Shown piece after piece: positions 31,794 through 52,174 of a stretch of 64,000 bases of DNA. The DNA comes from an uncultured virus (IMG/VR IMGVR_UViG_3300023117_001979). Its lineage: Duplodnaviria; Heunggongvirae; Uroviricota; Caudoviricetes. The notes under the pieces are model-generated. The model had not been told where the DNA came from and did not search any database. It was given only the letters and a program-made list of their open reading frames with translations. Positions within the stretch are counted from its first letter, which is position 1; every line of letters starts with the position of its first letter. The position numbers were made by a program, and so were the translations under genes. The stretch lies in IMG/VR virus record IMGVR_UViG_3300023117_001979; one strand, written 5' to 3'.

Positions 31794-32105
31794 ATGGCAA
31801 AATTTGCGCGAACAGTGTCAAAAATCGAACAATGCTTTAGAGTTTATGAAGACTCCCTGGAAGTGGATGTTCTTTCCTTCCATCAAATTCGTGATTGGTA
31901 TAACGAGCAAACCAAGGATGGAATTACTTCTGCTCGCCTAATTAACCTCCTTCGCAAGCGTCCTCAGTTTGTTTGGCAACATACCGAGCGTAAAATTGGC
32001 TCAAATGAAACATTGACCTTTTGGTCTATGAACAAAGAAGTCAAGCTGCCTAACCCTGCAGATGGTTGGGTGGTTATTGAGCAGGCAGCTCCGCTATCGT
32101 GCTAG
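31794..32105 (+). CDS. putative winged-helix protein
   Basis: LSFHQIRDWYN..TK.G.TS.RLINLLRK.PQF. Confidence 0.6.
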   Translation: MAKFARTVSKIEQCFRVYEDSLEVDVLSFHQIRDWYNEQTKDGITSARLINLLRKRPQFVWQHTERKIGSNETLTFWSMNKEVKLPNPADGWVVIEQAAPLSC

Positions 32106-32827: not shown

Positions 32828-33230
32828 GAGCGAGGAGAAGACCTCGTATTCAATTAGGTGAAAAACTTGGATAGAACCCATGCTGTCAAGGAGGTTCTAG
32901 AAGGGATGTACGGAAAGCAGCGAGCATAACCTCGTCGTGAAACCGGTAGGAGGGCTTGTACCTCTGAGGTTGAATTTCCCGCATTCATATAGAATCTTCA
33001 AAGCATCAGTTTAGGGGCTCTTGGGTGAAATAGACCTGGAGCGACCCGTGACCCCGGTCAGAGACTATGCGGTTCAACAAACTCAGAATGTGCCACTCAG
33101 CGTAAAACCTGAGTCTGCACAGCCTACGGGCCGAGAAATAGACAAGCGAGTAGCCACGAAGCGTGGGACAAACAGTAGCTAGTTAGCCAATAGGCGATAT
33201 ACAGTTACTGATTGTGAATAGTAAACAACC

Positions 33231-33608
33231 CCCAACGGTGTTCGAGCCGACGGGGTTGGGATGGACTTAGAGTGGATTGCGCCGTAGATTCGGCTTAAAC
33301 TCAATGAAAATCCCGTTACAGAAACAACCAAAGCTGCCCTGAATTCAGTGCAGATGGTTGGAACTTTCCTTGGATGGAAGTACAATGTATGAATGCCGTC
33401 GCCTAAGTGCAGGGCCGCCACTTTCAATGGCCTGCTCAGAACGGATATGATGCTGGAATTGGGGTGAAATCCCAGTTATGAATGCATCTGTGCATGTATG
33501 CCTGACCATGGGGAACGATAGGAGAGGATGTTCACGCAACCTCTCCTATTAGCGAGGTAAAAATCGCCCAAGTCAAAAAAGTTAGCCCAACGGTGTTCGA
33601 GCCGACGG
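33231..33608 (+). repeat. 23-nt direct repeat CCCAACGGTGTTCGAGCCGACGG (33231-33253, 33586-33608)
   Basis: Exact match read from the sequence. Confidence 0.9.
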
Positions 33609-34250
33609 CTGCTTTGGCCTCTGCAACCGGTGAAGCGGACCGGAGGCCCCAAGACTTGGAATTAGGCTGTGGTAGCCAATCTTACATGTGAAAGCTGAGT
33701 CCGAGTAACCAACGGAACAATGAAGCTTTCAAGCAAGAAGCCGAATGCTTGCATTCGGCCTTCACATATCAGGAGGAAACCAAAAATTCTCCTGTATATA
33801 TGGGCACCAGGTGTATTCCTGGTGTACCGGGGGTCAGGTACATGTTTACCATGTCCTGGCTCCCAAGACCATATCAGTGAGTGGTGTAACTGATTGGAAG
33901 GTTGTTGGACAACCTGTATGGTATGCTAGCTTATGCTAGAAGTGCCTCCAACTAGAAGATTAAGTGCATTACGCACACACACAATTTACCACACTCGCCC
34001 GGACTCGATTTATCGAGTCTTTACATTATCTTGAGACTAAAATAGGGCTTAAGCCCGGCGAACCTATCACCGTAAGGATGGTGGGTAAAGTCGCACAGTA
34101 ATTTATTAGCTCTCTTCGGAGAGAAACAGAAATCCAGCTACCAGCCTCACGGCTGAGACTAATATACGCCCACATAAAGGGACCTCACCGGATAGAGCCG
34201 AGGGTCCTGTGGTGCGCGGAAGTTGGATGATAATGTAACTACAAAATATA

Positions 34251-34284
34251 CCAGGGTAGCGTTAAAACTGCCCTGGTTTTTTTT
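34251..34284 (+). terminator. hairpin + T8 terminator-like element
   Basis: CCAGGGTAG-cgttaaaa-CTGCCCTGG then TTTTTTTT. Confidence 0.8.
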
Positions 34285-34292
34285 GTATCAGT

Positions 34293-45379: not shown

Positions 45380-45394
45380 TATATAAGTGTGAAA

Positions 45395-45425
45395 GTAGTA
45401 CTACTTTCCCAAGCGCTACAATATG
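45395..45425 (+). promoter_or_regulatory. bipartite element copy 3
   Basis: GTAGTACTAC tttcccaa GCGCTACAATATG. Confidence 0.8.
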
Positions 45426-45427
45426 AG

Positions 45428-45920
45428 CCAGGGAGTGCATACTGCTCAGTATGTCCCCGTGCATTTATGCATATGGCCTGAGTAACGCTAGTGAAACATT
45501 AGTGATTAGTGATAAGTGAATAGGATAGAACAACTTGGACCGTGGCGGTAAACTGTCACCCATTCAAGTTATCCTTGAAATTGCCGCCTTTGCGAACCCC
45601 GATGCATTGGCGAAAGAGTAGGGCATTAGTGAATCAGGTTCTCAACCTGTGAAACTAATGAATTTCGAGACAAGTAAAATACGCTTTCCGAAGCGGTTTT
45701 GCCTGTTTTAAGGACTTGAAGTAACCACGACTCTAGCCGAGTTGACTCCGGGTTACTTCTCGTAGGCTCTCCTGCCCTAACGGGTAGAGAGATGGAGAAA
45801 TTTCAGCAAATAGCGACCTTGTTGCAACGAGTTAGCTGTTTGTACTGTGAAAACACTCTAATTTGGGCTTCACAGCCGATTTTCGAGTGTAAAACATGAA
45901 ATTAGCGTGGTGAACCAGAA
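45428..45920 (+). ncRNA. putative ~0.5 kb structured RNA 2a
   Basis: No ORF in the track; serial hairpins between element copies 3 and 4. Confidence 0.6.
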
Positions 45921-45928
45921 ATGTAGTA

Positions 45929-45959
45929 GTAGTACTACTTTGCTGGGCGCTACAACATG
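45929..45959 (+). promoter_or_regulatory. bipartite element copy 4
   Basis: GTAGTACTAC tttgctgg GCGCTACAACATG. Confidence 0.8.
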
Positions 45960-46884
45960 AACCGGGGGAGGAGTAATATCCAAACTCGGTTTTTTATTAG
46001 GCGTGGACAATGTGTGAAGGAGCAAGTACTTCGGGAAAGTGAATTCACACTAAGCTGACTCTGAGAGTCGGTAACGCTGATGATGCCCGACCTCCGTGCC
46101 TTCATGGCCTGTAACCGGAGGCGGGACTTCGACACATCGGGATGGCAGAAATACTGTGAGAGAGCAGTTAGATTGTCGCATGAGTAAGCAGCCGTCGCGC
46201 TGCAAGAGACTGTCAACTGGCAGTTTCGTAGACTGGAGACAGTTGCTCTAAGGGTGGAAGCAGTCAGAAGCTTCCTTGAGGGTAAACCATAATCCCTCTC
46301 CCTGTCCCGATAGTTAGACACGGTAAAGGCGGCGGTTTCGAAGACCAAAGCCTAGTGTTTGAAGGTGACTGAATGTGGGCAACTGAACTGCCCTAAAGTA
46401 CTGAGATGAAGCGGCTGGAGCAATCCGAAGCAAGGCAAGGAGTGGGTGACCACTTGAGCCTACAACAAATCTCAGGTCGGATGCAAGAAATTGTACTTTC
46501 TCATCATCCGTGGGAGTGCCAATGGCCCCCCTTCACCTTTCTAGTGTAGTAAACAAGCCGACCAAGATTAATTTTGGTTTCGGTGGATAATAGAAGCACG
46601 GCAATAAGGGCTAGTACCCGGAGTCGTGAACGACAGGAAAAGAGGAGAATACTCCTCCCTGGGACTACACACAAAGTGTGGAATTCTGATTCATTAAGCA
46701 GCATACGCAAGCTGTGAAGAAAGAATGAAACATAGGAATAGCTTTCCATTAACGATTGTATGCTGGGCGCAGCGCATGATTGGGATAGTGAAAATTGCGG
46801 ATTTATTCGTGATTCTTCCTACTTGCTACATTCCCCCCTGGGAATGAGCTAATAAGTCTTGAAATTGTAACGGAGGTCTGAAAA

Positions 46885-46968
46885 ATGGCCTCAAAACCGT
46901 TGAAAGACCTTTTCGATGAGCAGTCTGAATTATATGACAGCTTATTCGGAGATGACGCCAAGTTGTAA
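46885..46968 (+). CDS. 27-aa small ORF MASKPLKDLFDEQSELYDSLFGDDAKL
   Basis: GGAGGT RBS 7 nt upstream; manual translation. Confidence 0.45.
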   Translation: MASKPLKDLFDEQSELYDSLFGDDAKL

Positions 46969-46997
46969 AAATGACTTTGGCAATTCAAAAAATTCCT

Positions 46998-47033
46998 GGC
47001 GCATGTCTTACGGCATGCGCCTAAATTTTTTTT
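46998..47033 (+). terminator. hairpin + T tract
   Basis: GGCGCATGTC-ttac-GGCATGCGCC then taaaTTTTTTTT. Confidence 0.65.
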
Positions 47034-47057
47034 CTTATACTTGTACACAGGTCATTA

Positions 47058-47277
47058 CCTACGACCTCAATAAGTGGCACCACTGCGTCCCACCTGTGTT
47101 CAAGTGATGAAGTTGGGGTCGTAGGGAAGAGGGCAACAAAACCCCTGGACAGCTTTCCTGGGCGAGAATGAAATCGGGTCACCTAACCTGGTGGAGTTCT
47201 GACCTTAATGGATTACAAGACTTGTCTTGTTCCGGGACGCACGAGGCTTCACAACCTCGTGGGCTCTTGAACGCAGG
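47058..47277 (+). ncRNA. multiply pseudoknotted or switchable RNA element upstream of the DUF1257-like gene
   Basis: Three mutually crossing helices of 13, 8 and 12 bp. Confidence 0.6.
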
Positions 47278-47579
47278 GGTGTCACACCCAGTGTGGAAAC
47301 TGCCGTTTAGGCGGTTAAAACATTACAGACTACCTATTTGGTAGCTGTAAATTAATAATAAGATGCCTTTAGGCCGTGACCGAAGGTGTAGCAGGTACTC
47401 AGTTCTAATACAGGTACCTTTTATTTCATATTAAACATTAATATGGGGTAAAGAAGGTGGTTTAATATTGCCAAGGCTTTTTAGCCGAGGAGAACATGAA
47501 GCTATTGAGGGTGCAAACCCGTAACGAAAGTCAGATAGCAGGGTGGGATAGGCCACCTCCCATTAGGAACGGTAATAAT

Positions 47580-48128
47580 ATGAGTACAACTCAGAAAATT
47601 TCCATTAAGGGGCTCAAAATCGGTGAAGACCAATTTGAGCTTCTTGGCGAAACCGTCACTGAACTTGTCGGTGAAGCCGGAACAGTAACTATCAAAGAAA
47701 AAGGTAGTGAAGGACTCCTGATTAGGAGTCGACACCATGTGTCAGCAAATGCTAAGTTTGCTGACATTAAAATTCGTTTTCATGGTGCCAACTCAGATGT
47801 TGGTATCTATGTTGACGCAGATGGCCAAATTGGAATGGCCTGGGACGGATATGTGGTTCGTGGAAACGACCAAATGAAATCTGTCTTTGAAGGACGGTCT
47901 GACCGTCATACTTTTGAACGCAACTTGAACGCTATGTTCGTTGCAAAAACATTTGAAGAGACTGCAGTCCGTAAAGGATTCAGTACCTCAGGTGTTAAGC
48001 GTGTCTCACTCAAAGAAGAGAAAATGGGACAGTTTGAACTTGAGCTTGACACCGGTGGCCTTGGCTTCGGTGGCTTTGGAAACACAAATGAAAACACCAT
48101 GACTAACTCCCTACGAGGTGGTTTGTAA
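47580..48128 (+). CDS. DUF1257/Ycf35-like protein (start reassigned to MSTTQ)
   Basis: ADIKI...DVGI....G....WD.Y...LNAMF......A.RKGF pattern; next to a DUF2997-like gene. Confidence 0.6.
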   Translation: MSTTQKISIKGLKIGEDQFELLGETVTELVGEAGTVTIKEKGSEGLLIRSRHHVSANAKFADIKIRFHGANSDVGIYVDADGQIGMAWDGYVVRGNDQMKSVFEGRSDRHTFERNLNAMFVAKTFEETAVRKGFSTSGVKRVSLKEEKMGQFELELDTGGLGFGGFGNTNENTMTNSLRGGL

Positions 48129-48340
48129 TGGGTAAAATCAAAGTTATTGTAACTGAAGAAGGCGAAATTAAGATTGAAGCTAAAGAAGGGTTTGAAGGGA
48201 AGTCGTGCCAAGAGGCAATTGACTTCGTTATGCAAAACCTTCCAACTGGCTTTGCCTTTGAAGAGTTGGAGACTATCCGACATGGTAACTTTTCAGTAGT
48301 TGCAGAAAACCCAAAACAGGTTTACTTGCAAAAAGACTGA
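48128..48340 (+). CDS. DUF2997-like protein
   Basis: IKVIVTEEGEIKIEAKEGFEGKSCQEA. Confidence 0.75.
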   Translation: MGKIKVIVTEEGEIKIEAKEGFEGKSCQEAIDFVMQNLPTGFAFEELETIRHGNFSVVAENPKQVYLQKD

Positions 48341-48344
48341 ACCA

Positions 48345-50240
48345 ATAAGGAACGGTAAATATCCCTTGAGGGGGCGTCAGCCCCCAATGAAAAGAAAAAT
48401 TCTTTTCAGCCGCTGCGAGGAACACTTTCGTGTTCCTAGCCGCGTGATGAAAAGAATGACACATAATGCTAATAATGTCCTATGACAAAATATGCCGCGC
48501 TAAGGAACACGCAAGTGTTCCTCGCAGCGGCTGAAAAGTAGAAAACGAAACACAAGTATCGACACAGCGGTCGACAAAACTTCGACGAAGTTTACCCGAC
48601 GGTAATAGATACACTGTTTCTGAAATTATGATTGCTTTGATGCTTGAGGAGCTGAAGATGGAGATAAAAAGGTGCCAATCAGGTACCTGACACATATCAT
48701 CTCAAGTCTAGACCATAATATCCGCGGCTACCAATCTGAAAGATGGTGACCAAGATATTTGGAAATCTTTCCCAGAAGATTCCTGGACGGTACTGAGATT
48801 CCAAACTCTGGCTCTGATTAACTTTGAGACATGTCAAATGTCAGAATCCAATAATGCAAGCACTATAGCTTGCCATGGATGAATACGATACGGCTGGATT
48901 GTGGTGAGTAACCACAGTAAAATTTTGCCAGGGCACACACTCTGTGTTCTGTCTTGCCCAGTGGACCACAAGAAAGATGATTTCATGATGGCCAAGTTAA
49001 TCGAAACAAAAGGTCAACTTGCACCTGGTAATTGCCCGGTGTATGGAGAGAGCTCGCGAGGTTGCCACTGCGCAACTAAGCACTAAGAGTTACGACCGGC
49101 CTCTTCCTGAAGAGACAACTACTAGTATCAAAAAATCGTGTTACTGAAAAGCTATTCGAATAAAGAAAGACCACAGTGTCGCGACATTGCAGGTTAGTGC
49201 CACCATGGCACGACTACTGAACACCAATGTCTACAGAGACCTATTGGTCGTCGAAATGAGCCGAGCATCTATCTTGACATATGTCAGGATAGAGAACATT
49301 GAGTTCTAGTTTTGGTAAACCAGCTGGTAATACAAGCTGGAAATACAAAATAAAGATTCGAATAAAGAAATTCACTAAGTCTACTTGCGGAACCAGCGCT
49401 ATGGACAAGATGGTAACAGCAAGATGATTGCAAATAGCCAGTACTTGTAACCATAACACATGTCACGAGTTCTGAATTCACAATCGTGAAGATATTACTC
49501 AACTACAGTAGCTGCACCGCATAATCGATGGATAAATCAAAACATTAGCAAAATACATCTTAACTCCCGTTTTGGCACATGCCAAAACACTGGTAAAGAC
49601 TATTTGAGAGTGAGGGGGACCTTGGTCTATGAACCAAAGGTACCCCGAAACCGGTGTGAAAAAGACTCTGTCACTAATGCCTGCATGGCACGGTACAGAA
49701 CCTTTCGTTATCGAACCAGAGAAGAACTTCGGTTCCTCTAGTACCAACGCGGATTAGTGGTCCGCCTCTCACAGGGGCACCATTACGCAACTGAAATTCT
49801 AATCGATTAACGAAATAAAATCAGGTAACTAAACTTCCTAGAATTCTAAAGATACGACGAGTACTTGCAAAGAATGTAAACAGAGTTTACACACAGCAAT
49901 GTCGTCACAATAATTTAGAGCCCTGAGGACGAGGTTACTTAAATCCACCAAATTTCCCAACTGGAGTTGCTCCAGTAAACTGAGGAGCTAATAGATGCTC
50001 CAAATGTCCATACAAGGATATTCAGAAATTACTCTCGCGCGCTGAGGCGCCACTAAGAAAACTTGCAACACTGCAGCAGCGGCGTTGCAACTTCTTTGCC
50101 ACACATGGTCAGGTAGCTTGTACAAAGCATGCTGCCATGTAATAGATATACGACATGTGTCACGCATGGCGGGTCGATTTCACCCTTTCCTGTCCGGGAG
50201 GGTTGCCAATCGCCCGTGGTACCGATTCCGCCAGTTTGAA
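48345..50240 (+). ncRNA. putative ~1.9 kb hairpin-dense non-coding region 3
   Basis: Only short ORFs (82 aa or less) in any frame; many short palindromic hairpins. Confidence 0.55.
48402..48538. repeat. 26-bp perfect inverted repeat
   Basis: CTTTTCAGCCGCTGCGAGGAACACTT (48402-48427) / AAGTGTTCCTCGCAGCGGCTGAAAAG (48513-48538). Confidence 0.95.
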
Positions 50241-50260
50241 AATTGTATTAGGTAGGATAA

Positions 50261-52174
50261 ATGTCACAAGACAAAGTATACCAAAATTTCGTGGAAAAGA
50301 GAGCAAACCTCTCTAATACTTCACGACTTCTGCAACTGTGGAAAGCCACAGAACCAGGAGTAATTATTGAAACGCCAGAAATGGCCGAGACTGTAAGCGA
50401 AATTACTCGACTTGCAGCAACACCGGAAGCTCGTAATATTGCCCCTAAATGGCTTGGCGAGCGTCCTGAAGTGGTTAGAGTTTCTTTCTCTAACTACCCA
50501 CAAGAACTCCGTGTAATCGAGCCAACAATAACGAAGCTCGCTAACGGAAAACAAACGGTTACCTACACCAACCCAATTGAGGGTGATGGTGATTTTAACC
50601 CAATGGATGGCAACGCGAAAGTGATGCCTTACGGAGACCCAGTCGATGTGCCTGAAAACTTCTTGGAACCATTTCCAAAAAGCGCGCACACTAAGATTTT
50701 GGGTGCTTCGCAACGAGTTAAATTCCGAGCTAGGGCTGACCCTGAGAGCATTATTATGACTTTCTTGGAATCCCTTGACGAATTTGATTCACAAAAAAAT
50801 GGACGAGGACGAATTTATGTTGTCGAAGCCGCAGAAAATATGTTGACCCTGAAAACCATGGTCGAAATGCTGCGTGAAAAAATTGACATGTTCCGAAACC
50901 AGCAAACGACTGGTCTCGCGATTGTTCTTCTTGTTCCACTTGGATTCGATAAGATGCCTGACAGCATCAAAGAAAGTTTCTTCAGTATGAAGTGGGAGCG
51001 ACCCCATAAGACACACTGGCGTGACTTAATCCAATCATTCGCTGCGGCCAAAAATATGGTCATGGACGAAGATAGCAACGGAAACCCGATAGTGGGTGTT
51101 TCAGCTAAAAACCTAGAGCGTTGTGTCAGTGCTGTTACTGGTATGACTAAAGCTCGTGGTGAAGCTGCCTTGCTAATGTGTACTGCAAAGTACAACAAAA
51201 TTCTCCCTGAAGTAATTCTAAGAGAAAAGTCAAACCTGGTTAAAGACTACGGATTGACACTACACAACCCTGACCCTGATGAAGCGGTTGGGGGCATGCA
51301 ACAATACCACGAATGGTTAGCGGAAGAAATCGCATGTGCGACCCCGCTTGCTGCTGGATATGGACTTGTTGGTAATCGAATGGTTATCCTAGCAGGTCCT
51401 CCAGGTACGGGTAAGTCGCTTGGTGTAAAGGTGCTTGGCTCCATGACTGGTCGTCCAATTGTTCGACTAGCTGCAACTGACCTTCGTAAGAAGTATGTCG
51501 GTGACGGAGAAGCACGACTACAAATCGCCATTGACTTGGCGGGTAGCATGGACGGAATCATTTGGATTGATGAAGTCGAAAAGCTAGTACAAAACACATC
51601 AGCAGAACGAGATGGTGGCTCAAGTGCCTCCGTTCTCTCTATTTTGTTGACTGAGATTCAAGAGAATAAGTCGAACATTATGTTCGCATTTACAGCAAAC
51701 CGCGTCGAAATGCTCCCCCCGGAGTTTGTTGACCGTGCTGGTTCTCGATTTTACTTTGGCTATCCTACGCGTGAGGAGCAACTTGCGATTCTTCGCATTC
51801 ATATTGCTGCTATGCGTAGGTACGAGCCAGATAACCCTGAAGCCGATGAGCGTGGCTATGCTCGCCGGAACCCTGACGACTATCCATTCTTGGAAGAACT
51901 CCTGAAGTACACCGATGGATGTAACGGTCGCCAGATTGCGAATGCTGTTCAAGCAAGCTTCAAAATTGCGTTCACCACACACCAAGGTGAGCCAACAAAG
52001 GAAGACTTCGTAAAGGGTATCAATCGAAACGCTATGAATTCCACTCCCCAAAAGGAGTTGGAGCTTATTCGCGACAACTGTTTGGCTCGTGGTTTCATCC
52101 CAGCCAATTCCGAAACTGAAGAAGAAGCTGAGTCTGTCGACTTCGGTGAAGTAGGAATCGCAGGTCGTCTTTGA
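50261..52174 (+). CDS. Ycf46-like AAA+ ATPase
   Basis: VGGM, Walker A GPPGTGKS, KYVGDGE, Walker B IWIDEVEK, TANRVEMLPPE; inactive N-terminal AAA-like region. Confidence 0.88.
   Translation: MSQDKVYQNFVEKRANLSNTSRLLQLWKATEPGVIIETPEMAETVSEITRLAATPEARNIAPKWLGERPEVVRVSFSNYPQELRVIEPTITKLANGKQTVTYTNPIEGDGDFNPMDGNAKVMPYGDPVDVPENFLEPFPKSAHTKILGASQRVKFRARADPESIIMTFLESLDEFDSQKNGRGRIYVVEAAENMLTLKTMVEMLREKIDMFRNQQTTGLAIVLLVPLGFDKMPDSIKESFFSMKWERPHKTHWRDLIQSFAAAKNMVMDEDSNGNPIVGVSAKNLERCVSAVTGMTKARGEAALLMCTAKYNKILPEVILREKSNLVKDYGLTLHNPDPDEAVGGMQQYHEWLAEEIACATPLAAGYGLVGNRMVILAGPPGTGKSLGVKVLGSMTGRPIVRLAATDLRKKYVGDGEARLQIAIDLAGSMDGIIWIDEVEKLVQNTSAERDGGSSASVLSILLTEIQENKSNIMFAFTANRVEMLPPEFVDRAGSRFYFGYPTREEQLAILRIHIAAMRRYEPDNPEADERGYARRNPDDYPFLEELLKYTDGCNGRQIANAVQASFKIAFTTHQGEPTKEDFVKGINRNAMNSTPQKELELIRDNCLARGFIPANSETEEEAESVDFGEVGIAGRL

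Follow-up and report, generated by a model that had tools for sequence, protein, structure and literature searches.

Orphan RNAs of about 250 nt with pseudoknotted cores and invariant junctions have in the past been a source of new ribozymes and RNA assemblies. In RNase P RNA, the helices follow the order P1, P2, P4, P5 ... P19, and to our knowledge no two-strand leader lock is known for this RNA. Its P4 helix is described as the most conserved part, holding 11 of the 21 universal bases (PMC4919922). The genomic HDV ribozyme is described with an inhibitory upstream flank and with Alt1/Alt2 (PMC4615214). The raiA motif RNA is a bacterial, stand-alone orphan (253 nt in the example given) with paired 5′ and 3′ ends and a pseudoknotted core (PMC12968392). 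Lastly, manA RNA (RF01745) was described from cyanophages and gamma-proteobacteria (PMC2864571), and manA RNAs are reported to form protein-free cages (bioRxiv 2026.07.01.735769).

The locus studied here lies in a 64,000-nt stretch of DNA from an uncultured virus (IMG/VR IMGVR_UViG_3300023117_001979), referred to below as the window. Judged from sequence comparison, its segment 47040–47295 (+ strand, as are all parts of the RNA given below) is a conserved structured RNA of about 250 nt from a marine archaeal virus-like element; its approximate ends, which enclose a leader, a core, and a short tail, are placed at the limits of conservation and of the match to our covariance model R1. The RNA contains six long covarying helices, X, Y, and Z together with V, W, and U, and it represents a well-supported new class of structured RNA with a conserved two-state design. 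As an RNA class it is categorically new, since it passes none of the family tests applied, while its mechanism is one that we infer; the inhibitory 5′ flank is not new as a principle and has precedents such as the HDV ribozyme. The literature searched does not describe this RNA, although the family could be included in the supplements or the cluster atlas of bioRxiv 2026.10.21.760802.

Among the proteins of the window, Pfam identifies a thermosome, PolB, Rpo5, RNase H, a resolvase, and an RNA polymerase A subunit in fused form. This carrier matches, on gene content alone, the description of 'Magrovirus group D' (PolB, thermosome, resolvase, RNA polymerase A) given in PMC5434244 and PMC10160649. 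The same two sources link group D to marine group II archaea and leave open whether its members are viruses, plasmids, or something else; PMC10160649 adds that they have no recognised capsid genes and are enriched in cell fractions. In its available text, PMC10160649 makes no mention of noncoding RNA or tRNA, and that of PMC5434244 reports no non-coding RNA and tRNAs for group B only. The RNA at 47040–47295 is the most constant unit that we find in the RNA array of these enigmatic elements of marine archaea. A syntenic relative of the element occurs in genome G001 (contigs C21 and C15), which also has a fused RNA polymerase A gene (71% identity to that of the window) beside a split host-type copy on contig C1; an archaeal genome bin thus contains the element.

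A search built on 29 aligned homologues of the protein encoded downstream retrieved 42 metagenome loci and one genome locus. In 34 of these, 400 nt or more of sequence precede the DUF1257-like gene, and all 34 carry the RNA; the other nine have at most 141 nt of upstream sequence. Alignment A2 comprises the window and 24 loci; the remaining RNA-bearing loci were left out as identical to the window (L001, L002), truncated at contig ends (L014, L016, L020, L021), or duplicates (L015, L037, L039, L043). A second, model-fitted alignment (A3, 24 distinct rows) is fitted to the core structure and thus leans toward it. Pairwise identity among the aligned RNAs ranges from 44 to 100%, and about four to six lineages are represented.

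Directly 5′ of the RNA is a terminator-like hairpin with a T run (46998–47033), judged by eye to be present in 30/30 related loci with upstream DNA. The leader carries two strands that covary with the core, V′ (47040–47052, partner 47092–47104, helix V) and X′ (47058–47071, partner 47112–47125, helix X). The leader/core junction is marked by the word ATAAGTG (47070–47076), which the original prediction had placed correctly and whose GTG supplies the first three bases of helix W; the exact word is found in 20/25 aligned sequences, AGAAGTG in 4/25, and ATTAGCG in 1/25. The core is closed by the covarying helix W, whose 5′ strand (47074–47081) is followed by the 5′ strand of helix Y (47084–47091), which forms a pseudoknot with helix Z, and by shared strand c1 (47092–47104), which pairs with V′ or with Z′. 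A purine-rich joiner (47103–47111) with four invariant bases (A47103, G47104, G47106, A47107) leads to shared strand c2 (47112–47125), which pairs with X′ or, through 47112–47121, with U′. Hairpin H1 (47130–47146, invariant CA in the loop), a conserved segment (47147–47164, invariant G47147, G47148, C47150, and G47162), and hairpin H3 (47165–47200), which has a purine-rich internal loop and invariant C47183 and A47185 in its apical loop, precede U′ (47200–47209), the 3′ strand of helix U. The variable hairpin H4 (47216–47229) comes next, and then a segment (47230–47241) in which an invariant TTC (47230–47232) is followed by Y′ (47234–47241), the 3′ strand of Y. Hairpin H5 (47240–47261) has a covarying stem and an invariant TCAC in its loop, Z′ (47266–47277) completes helix Z, and the last segment (47278–47295) consists of W′ (47278–47285), invariant A47286, and a tail with an invariant AGT (47290–47292). 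The invariant bases G47074 and A47286 border helix W in a manner reminiscent of a tRNA acceptor stem.

Candidates for further short pairings lie between the H3 loop and the end of c2, between TTCC (47230–47233) and 47125–47128 or 47147–47150, and between the H5 loop and either the purine joiner or the tail; the bases involved are invariant or shift in register. As a separate observation, the loop word (C/U)UCACA recurs in H5 (47247–47254), in the upstream cassette 45512–45925 (at 45866–45877), and in H1 of the distant loci L029 and L032–L038, and is perhaps a shared protein-binding or docking motif.

The original prediction had proposed three mutually crossing helices, X (47058–47070/47113–47125), Y (47084–47091/47234–47241), and Z (47093–47104/47266–47277), with single imperfections in X and Z that are G-U pairs on the + strand. 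Our analysis recovers all of these features: X crosses both Y and Z, and Y crosses Z. Helix X is longer than had been noted (14 bp, 47058–47071/47112–47125), and three helices had been missed, W (47074–47081/47278–47285), V (47040–47052/47092–47104), and U (47112–47121/47200–47209), each of which is present in 25/25 sequences. None of 1500 dinucleotide shuffles contains a mutually crossing trio of helices that reaches −18 kcal/mol, a threshold chosen post hoc from the weakest helix; at a lenient −14 kcal/mol, such trios occur in 29/400 shuffles. Tiling of the window gives three crossing helices in 0/541 tiles, none of which contains the whole element. The + strand folds better than its shuffles (z −2.5) and better than the − strand (z −1.8).

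The central feature of this RNA is that each of its two shared strands has two conserved partners that exclude one another. Strand c1 pairs either with V′ of the leader or with the 3′ strand Z′, and c2 either with X′ of the leader or with the 3′ strand U′. When a base of a shared strand changes between lineages, both of its partners change too. Two exclusive helix pairs, each under such three-way compensation down to 44% identity, are a rare feature and constitute a natural, testable on/off design in an RNA small enough for transcription, probing, and imaging.

The covariation counts behind these pairings are as follows. For the nested core (W, Z, U, and the hairpins), 85.9% of the cells in A3 are paired and 33 of 48 pairs have changed on both sides; none of 500 shuffles attains the scores of the whole structure, and in slid controls 40–54% of the cells are paired. 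By element, A3 shows 94.8% paired cells for Z (5/12 pairs changed on both sides), 94.8% for U (8/8), 95.1% for W (1/6), and 95.1% for hairpin H5 (6/6), and only 54–68% for the variable hairpins H3 and H4; helix Y is 100% paired, with two of its seven pairs changed on both sides. The A3 counts for V (79.5%) and X (84.1%) are lowered by misalignment of the leader in distant rows. Counted in the best ungapped register (25 sequences × 10 positions, i.e., 250 cells), paired cells number 233 for V, 237 for Z, 240 for X, and 224 for U, and shuffled leaders reach 6.5 and 7.3 of 10 paired positions vs 9.3 and 9.6 observed. When strands were swapped among six sequences of four lineages, the own partner was better than the foreign one in 25 (V), 25 (Z), 24 (X), 22 (U), 22 (Y), and 24 (W) of 26 comparisons. 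The leader helices V and X are nearly all Watson-Crick, with 12 and 16 G-U cells, in contrast to 60 and 49 in Z and U, a difference between a plain lock and helices with constrained wobbles. The original prediction had asked whether homologues break the pairings without compensation; they maintain them by compensatory change, which supports its claims of a compact structured RNA and of a switch.

Its third claim, a static double pseudoknot, fares less well. A fold in which X, Y, Z (and W) are all formed together is very unlikely in our view: these four helices share no nucleotides, and each is stronger than or equal to its competitor, yet X faces a conserved competitor in U, as Z does in V, such a fold leaves the conserved and covarying V′ and U′ unexplained, and about 28 bp would probably have to form within a closed 40-nt loop.

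Folding calculations suggest which of the exclusive helices prevails at each stage. On successive prefixes of the RNA, V (0.81) persists until 47115 and X (0.98) is formed from 47130 onward. X also dominates the full-length nested ensemble (0.69, with W at 0.23), and omission of the leader raises W from 0.23 to 0.97. For the main lineage, X (−24.5 kcal/mol) exceeds U (−14.8 kcal/mol) in strength by ~10 kcal/mol. Between V and Z there is no difference in strength, so that a mixed state with X and Z is possible. Without the leader, the nested model gives low values for both Z (0.15) and U (0.24), and Y is beyond such a model; the core fold thus rests on covariation and not on energy.

The mechanism that we favor, with a probability of roughly 0.5, is that the nascent RNA is held in a locked form by its leader until the latter is removed at the ATAAGTG junction, whereupon the W/Y/Z/U pseudoknot core would fold to yield a stand-alone non-coding RNA. 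Given the order of synthesis, V would form first and X next, well before the 3′ partners exist. X would then enclose the 5′ strands of W, Y, and Z in a loop of 40 nt, and winding the ~28 bp there would require threading. Removal of the 32-nt leader at the junction, either by cutting or by an internal start, would lift this lock and leave a free 5′ end that begins at helix W. The core could then adopt the W-Y-Z-U fold, a pseudoknot that has five hairpin-like elements and whose helices follow the same order as those of RNase P RNA. We read the leader as a lock or pro-sequence because X is dominant in its presence, W rises when it is omitted, X is stronger than U, and threading would be a problem for the alternative pairings. 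The original prediction had also remarked that a transcript starting at ATAAGTG would lack helix X, which agrees with the core boundary, as helix W begins at the GTG of that word. Several points speak against this reading: Z and U remain low in the nested model even when the leader is omitted, a mixed X+Z state is possible, the exact ATAAGTG is absent from the junction in 5/25 sequences, the leader is misaligned in distant rows of A3, an alignment fitted to the core structure, only four to six lineages stand behind the covariation counts, and the contig depth over part of the core is low in one RNA run (see below).

Alternatively, the leader might be retained, with V and X acting as short-lived place-holders that are displaced by Z and U during transcription, so that neither a cut nor a second start is required. 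This folding relay would account for the V-then-X order seen in prefix folding, for the equal strength of V and Z, and for the direct continuation of Z′ into W′, and conserved transient helices have already been described (PMC4615214). It is nevertheless rather unlikely, given that X is far stronger than U and holds 0.69 of the full-length nested ensemble, and that a unit-start word falls exactly on the leader/core boundary.

The core is probably the working part, as its junctions and loops contain almost every invariant base. Of the 49 invariant columns, 48 fall at position 47074 or beyond, the majority of them within joiners and loops, although misalignment of the leader may mask some invariant bases there. 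The five most distant sequences have a punctuation word directly before the leader and again directly after W. The core is most likely a protein-binding or self-assembling structural RNA, for which the manA-type cage might, by analogy, be one model, and it is possibly, as a candidate only, a catalyst.

The leaderless core resembles RNase P/MRP RNA in its architecture: the order W, Y, Z, and U, with hairpin H5 placed before Z′, matches the order P1, P2, P4, P5, and both RNAs combine a closing helix with two crossing long-range helices and a multi-hairpin domain inserted after the second. Unlike P4, the equivalent helix Z is 12 bp long and variable in sequence; P3 is absent here, and no covariance model of the family matches. 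Of the universally conserved P4 sequences, a CR-V pattern is found in 0/25 sequences, and a CR-I pattern in 2/25, where it falls within hairpin H3 and not in Z.

This architecture bears on a further reading, that of a new self-processing ribozyme in which the leader is a substrate docked by two guide strands, cut at 47071–47074, and displaced by the mimics Z′ and U′. The order of the two guide strands would be that of the two exon-binding sites of group II introns. Both leader helices end shortly before the junction, the joiners are invariant and purine-rich, the first core position is an invariant G, the helix order is RNase P-like, and the cassette array requires some means of cutting into units. 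The same junction word, however, is also found at many gene starts that lack this RNA, and no Rfam ribozyme matches even at E 10. Core motifs of RNase P, of the hammerhead, or of group I or group II introns are not found at any fixed place: patterns for the hammerhead (CUGANGA), group II domain 5, and group I J8/7 occur in 0, 0, and 2 of the 25 sequences, respectively. Nor is there a family-wide HDV-like arrangement, since our own descriptor of P1/P1.1/P2/P3/P4 with the J4/2 catalytic C has no match in 15/25 sequences, the window included, and matches scattered at differing places in the other 10. We therefore regard the ribozyme reading as unlikely. The same holds for its specific form, a ribozyme class shaped like RNase P but unrelated to it that docks its own leader, cuts at ATAAGTG, and releases the product by strand exchange, which we consider doubtful; if it were true, the RNA might also cut the cassette array or the messages of the element at ATAAGTG.

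In one respect the proposed lock resembles the HDV ribozyme, in which a 5′ flank likewise pairs with core strands and blocks the active pseudoknotted fold, and in which conserved exclusive helices also occur (PMC4615214). The core here is ~210 nt as opposed to 85, and both leader helices are 10–15 bp long and covary across sequences that are 44% identical. With the raiA motif RNA, our RNA shares a compact orphan character, a similar size, a pseudoknotted core, and paired ends; the raiA pseudoknots are described as 4–6 bp long and made from one linker, unlike the 7–12 bp crossing helices found here (PMC12968392). Membership in the raiA motif was rejected on helix lengths and order (P1, P3–P6, PK1, PK2) and for want of a match to the Rfam model.

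In a cmscan-type search, as the original prediction had advised, no Rfam family matches the element. With Rfam 15, the gathering threshold is reached by no match in the window and by none in 18 related loci, and at E values up to 10 the only match to 47030–47300 is to a microRNA model on the minus strand, which scores 15.9 of 79 bits, a chance level. ARAGORN finds no tRNA or tmRNA gene in the window or in 28 related loci.

The original prediction had named the RNA a switch upstream of DUF1257, DUF2997, and AAA genes. The AAA label (50261–52174) is confirmed. That of DUF2997 (48128–48340, +) falls short of the Pfam cut-off (22.9 vs 24.1 bits), and the DUF1257-like gene (47580–48128, +) has no Pfam match in 29 homologues, but DUF1257 is the family of its nearest Atlas clusters (0.90–0.91, a low recognition value). 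A long imperfect inverted repeat follows the DUF2997-like gene (48340–48545); it is present in 33/43 loci and is nearly as constant as the RNA itself.

A switch in the 5′ region of these genes that responds to a ligand or a protein could make use of the two mutually exclusive states, and alternative structures that share strands (V/Z and X/U) are indeed a feature of riboswitches. The same gene is always downstream, an association made one-sided by the selection of the loci through that gene. Over 31 loci, the distance from the RNA to the next start codon is 18–467 nt; it is 18–22 nt in four of them, as a cis element might require, but 115–467 nt in the remaining 27, with other cassettes intervening, and cis-regulation of the downstream genes is thereby weakened. 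We find no riboswitch expression platform at a steady distance from the gene, and the terminator-like hairpin lies upstream of the RNA. Inspection by eye shows neither a terminator nor a ribosome-binding site that overlaps with the switching strands, and the competing strand is 5′ of the core and not 3′. These points make a cis-acting switch quite unlikely. Conversely, the 18–467 nt to the next gene and the location within an array of RNA cassettes indicate that the RNA is probably stand-alone, as the locked-precursor mechanism has it.

A role at the DNA level, as a single-stranded DNA fold or as an RNA that re-pairs with its own upstream DNA (an R-loop or the target guide of a mobile unit), is suggested by the complementarity of two core strands to the sense strand immediately upstream. 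We consider it highly improbable, in that the core is present in 34/34 loci with enough upstream DNA and no empty site is seen, the window holds a single copy, many conserved pairs are G-U on the + strand, and Pfam detects neither a transposase nor a reverse transcriptase among 27 window proteins. Elsewhere in the window, no second partner that is perfect or unique is found for the leader strands or the 3′ strands, with matches at chance level only (10–14-nt words, 0–2 mismatches).

A blastn search of 45380–47600 against a phage collection gave two chance matches only, and a protein search of the viral contigs collection gave no relative. Two DNA patterns retrieved 2 and 18 viral-contig stretches, among which neither the profile nor model R1 identifies a homologue. 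A DNA pattern run against genome contigs returned 35 stretches, one of them genuine (L066, the same place as L043). Among 151 genomes that belong to the same order as G001, model R1 matches that of G001 and none of the other 150.

The RNA belongs to an array of RNA-like cassettes, a nearly non-coding 2.2-kb tract (45383–47579, +) with a 27-codon ORF. Besides the RNA, the array holds units at 45383–45510 (18/43 loci), 45512–45925 (16/43), 46672–46865 (17/43), and 47452–47579 (24/43). The cassettes differ among relatives (L027, 4410–6000; L032, 4100–6000; L038, 4350–6000), and each of them may be a further new RNA motif. They are bounded by ATTAGTG, ATAAGTG, or YAGTG words, and several end in pyrimidine runs such as CTACCTC. 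ATAAGTG, found at unit starts, occurs 23 times in the window vs 9.2 ± 3.0 expected; 20 copies are on the + strand from 34535 on, nine of which provide the GTG start of a called ORF. The 27-codon ORF (46886–46969, +) lies 5′ of the terminator-like hairpin, and a similar acidic peptide (ending in KL, TI, KI, or IF) is found in 17/21 loci examined, including the distant L029 and L032.

A tandem pair of manA-like units (46119–46308 and 46341–46539, +) is located 500–900 nt upstream of the RNA. The two score 29.9 and 33.7 bits (E 7e-5 and 5e-6) vs a gathering threshold of 55.2, and nhmmer finds the pair in 2/43 loci, the contig of the window itself (L001) and L022 (4092–4283 and 4315–4520). As manA was described from cyanophages and gamma-proteobacteria, an archaeal element would be a new setting for it. 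The RNA at 47040–47295 shares a marine viral DNA setting with manA and other marine phage orphan RNAs, and it is fixed in its lineage (34/34 loci), unlike the manA-like pair. Its own membership in manA was rejected, for 47030–47300 has no RF01745 score and the sub-threshold matches are those of the neighboring units.

Twelve of 24 sequencing runs are RNA libraries from salt marsh, in which 73–98% of the words of 45400–50260 are present. We examined assembled contigs from three RNA runs and one DNA run, which convey neither strand, ends, nor level. RNA-run contigs over ~46070–47130 have a depth of 1100–2400, most flanking bins 40–660, and the DNA run is nearly flat at 40–63, which suggests that the cassette tract is transcribed. 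For RNA run X11, the piece 47104–47179 has a depth of 166 vs 1122 for the piece upstream, so that there is no sign of high abundance of the core.

Several minor observations concern the same data and the flanking DNA. The bin 45908–46208 of X11 reaches a depth of 22275, ~20 times that of the neighboring contig, possibly reflecting a short, very abundant RNA near 46080–46130. The high-depth contigs of X11 and X18 both end at 47133, where the DNA run and X14 continue. Two loose contig ends of X11, each a single contig, match the window at 47134–47150 with every C read as T, which could be an artefact, a variant, or deamination. The tracts 48546–50130 and 32836–34290 have no convincing ORFs and no meaningful Rfam match; the former is not conserved in sequence in the loci compared, which stop short of the latter. 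Lastly, a motif of ~40 nt with the palindrome AGTAGTACTACT and with GCGCTACAA is repeated at 32104, 32797, 45394, and 45928 and kept in relatives, and is a candidate operator, promoter, or origin element.
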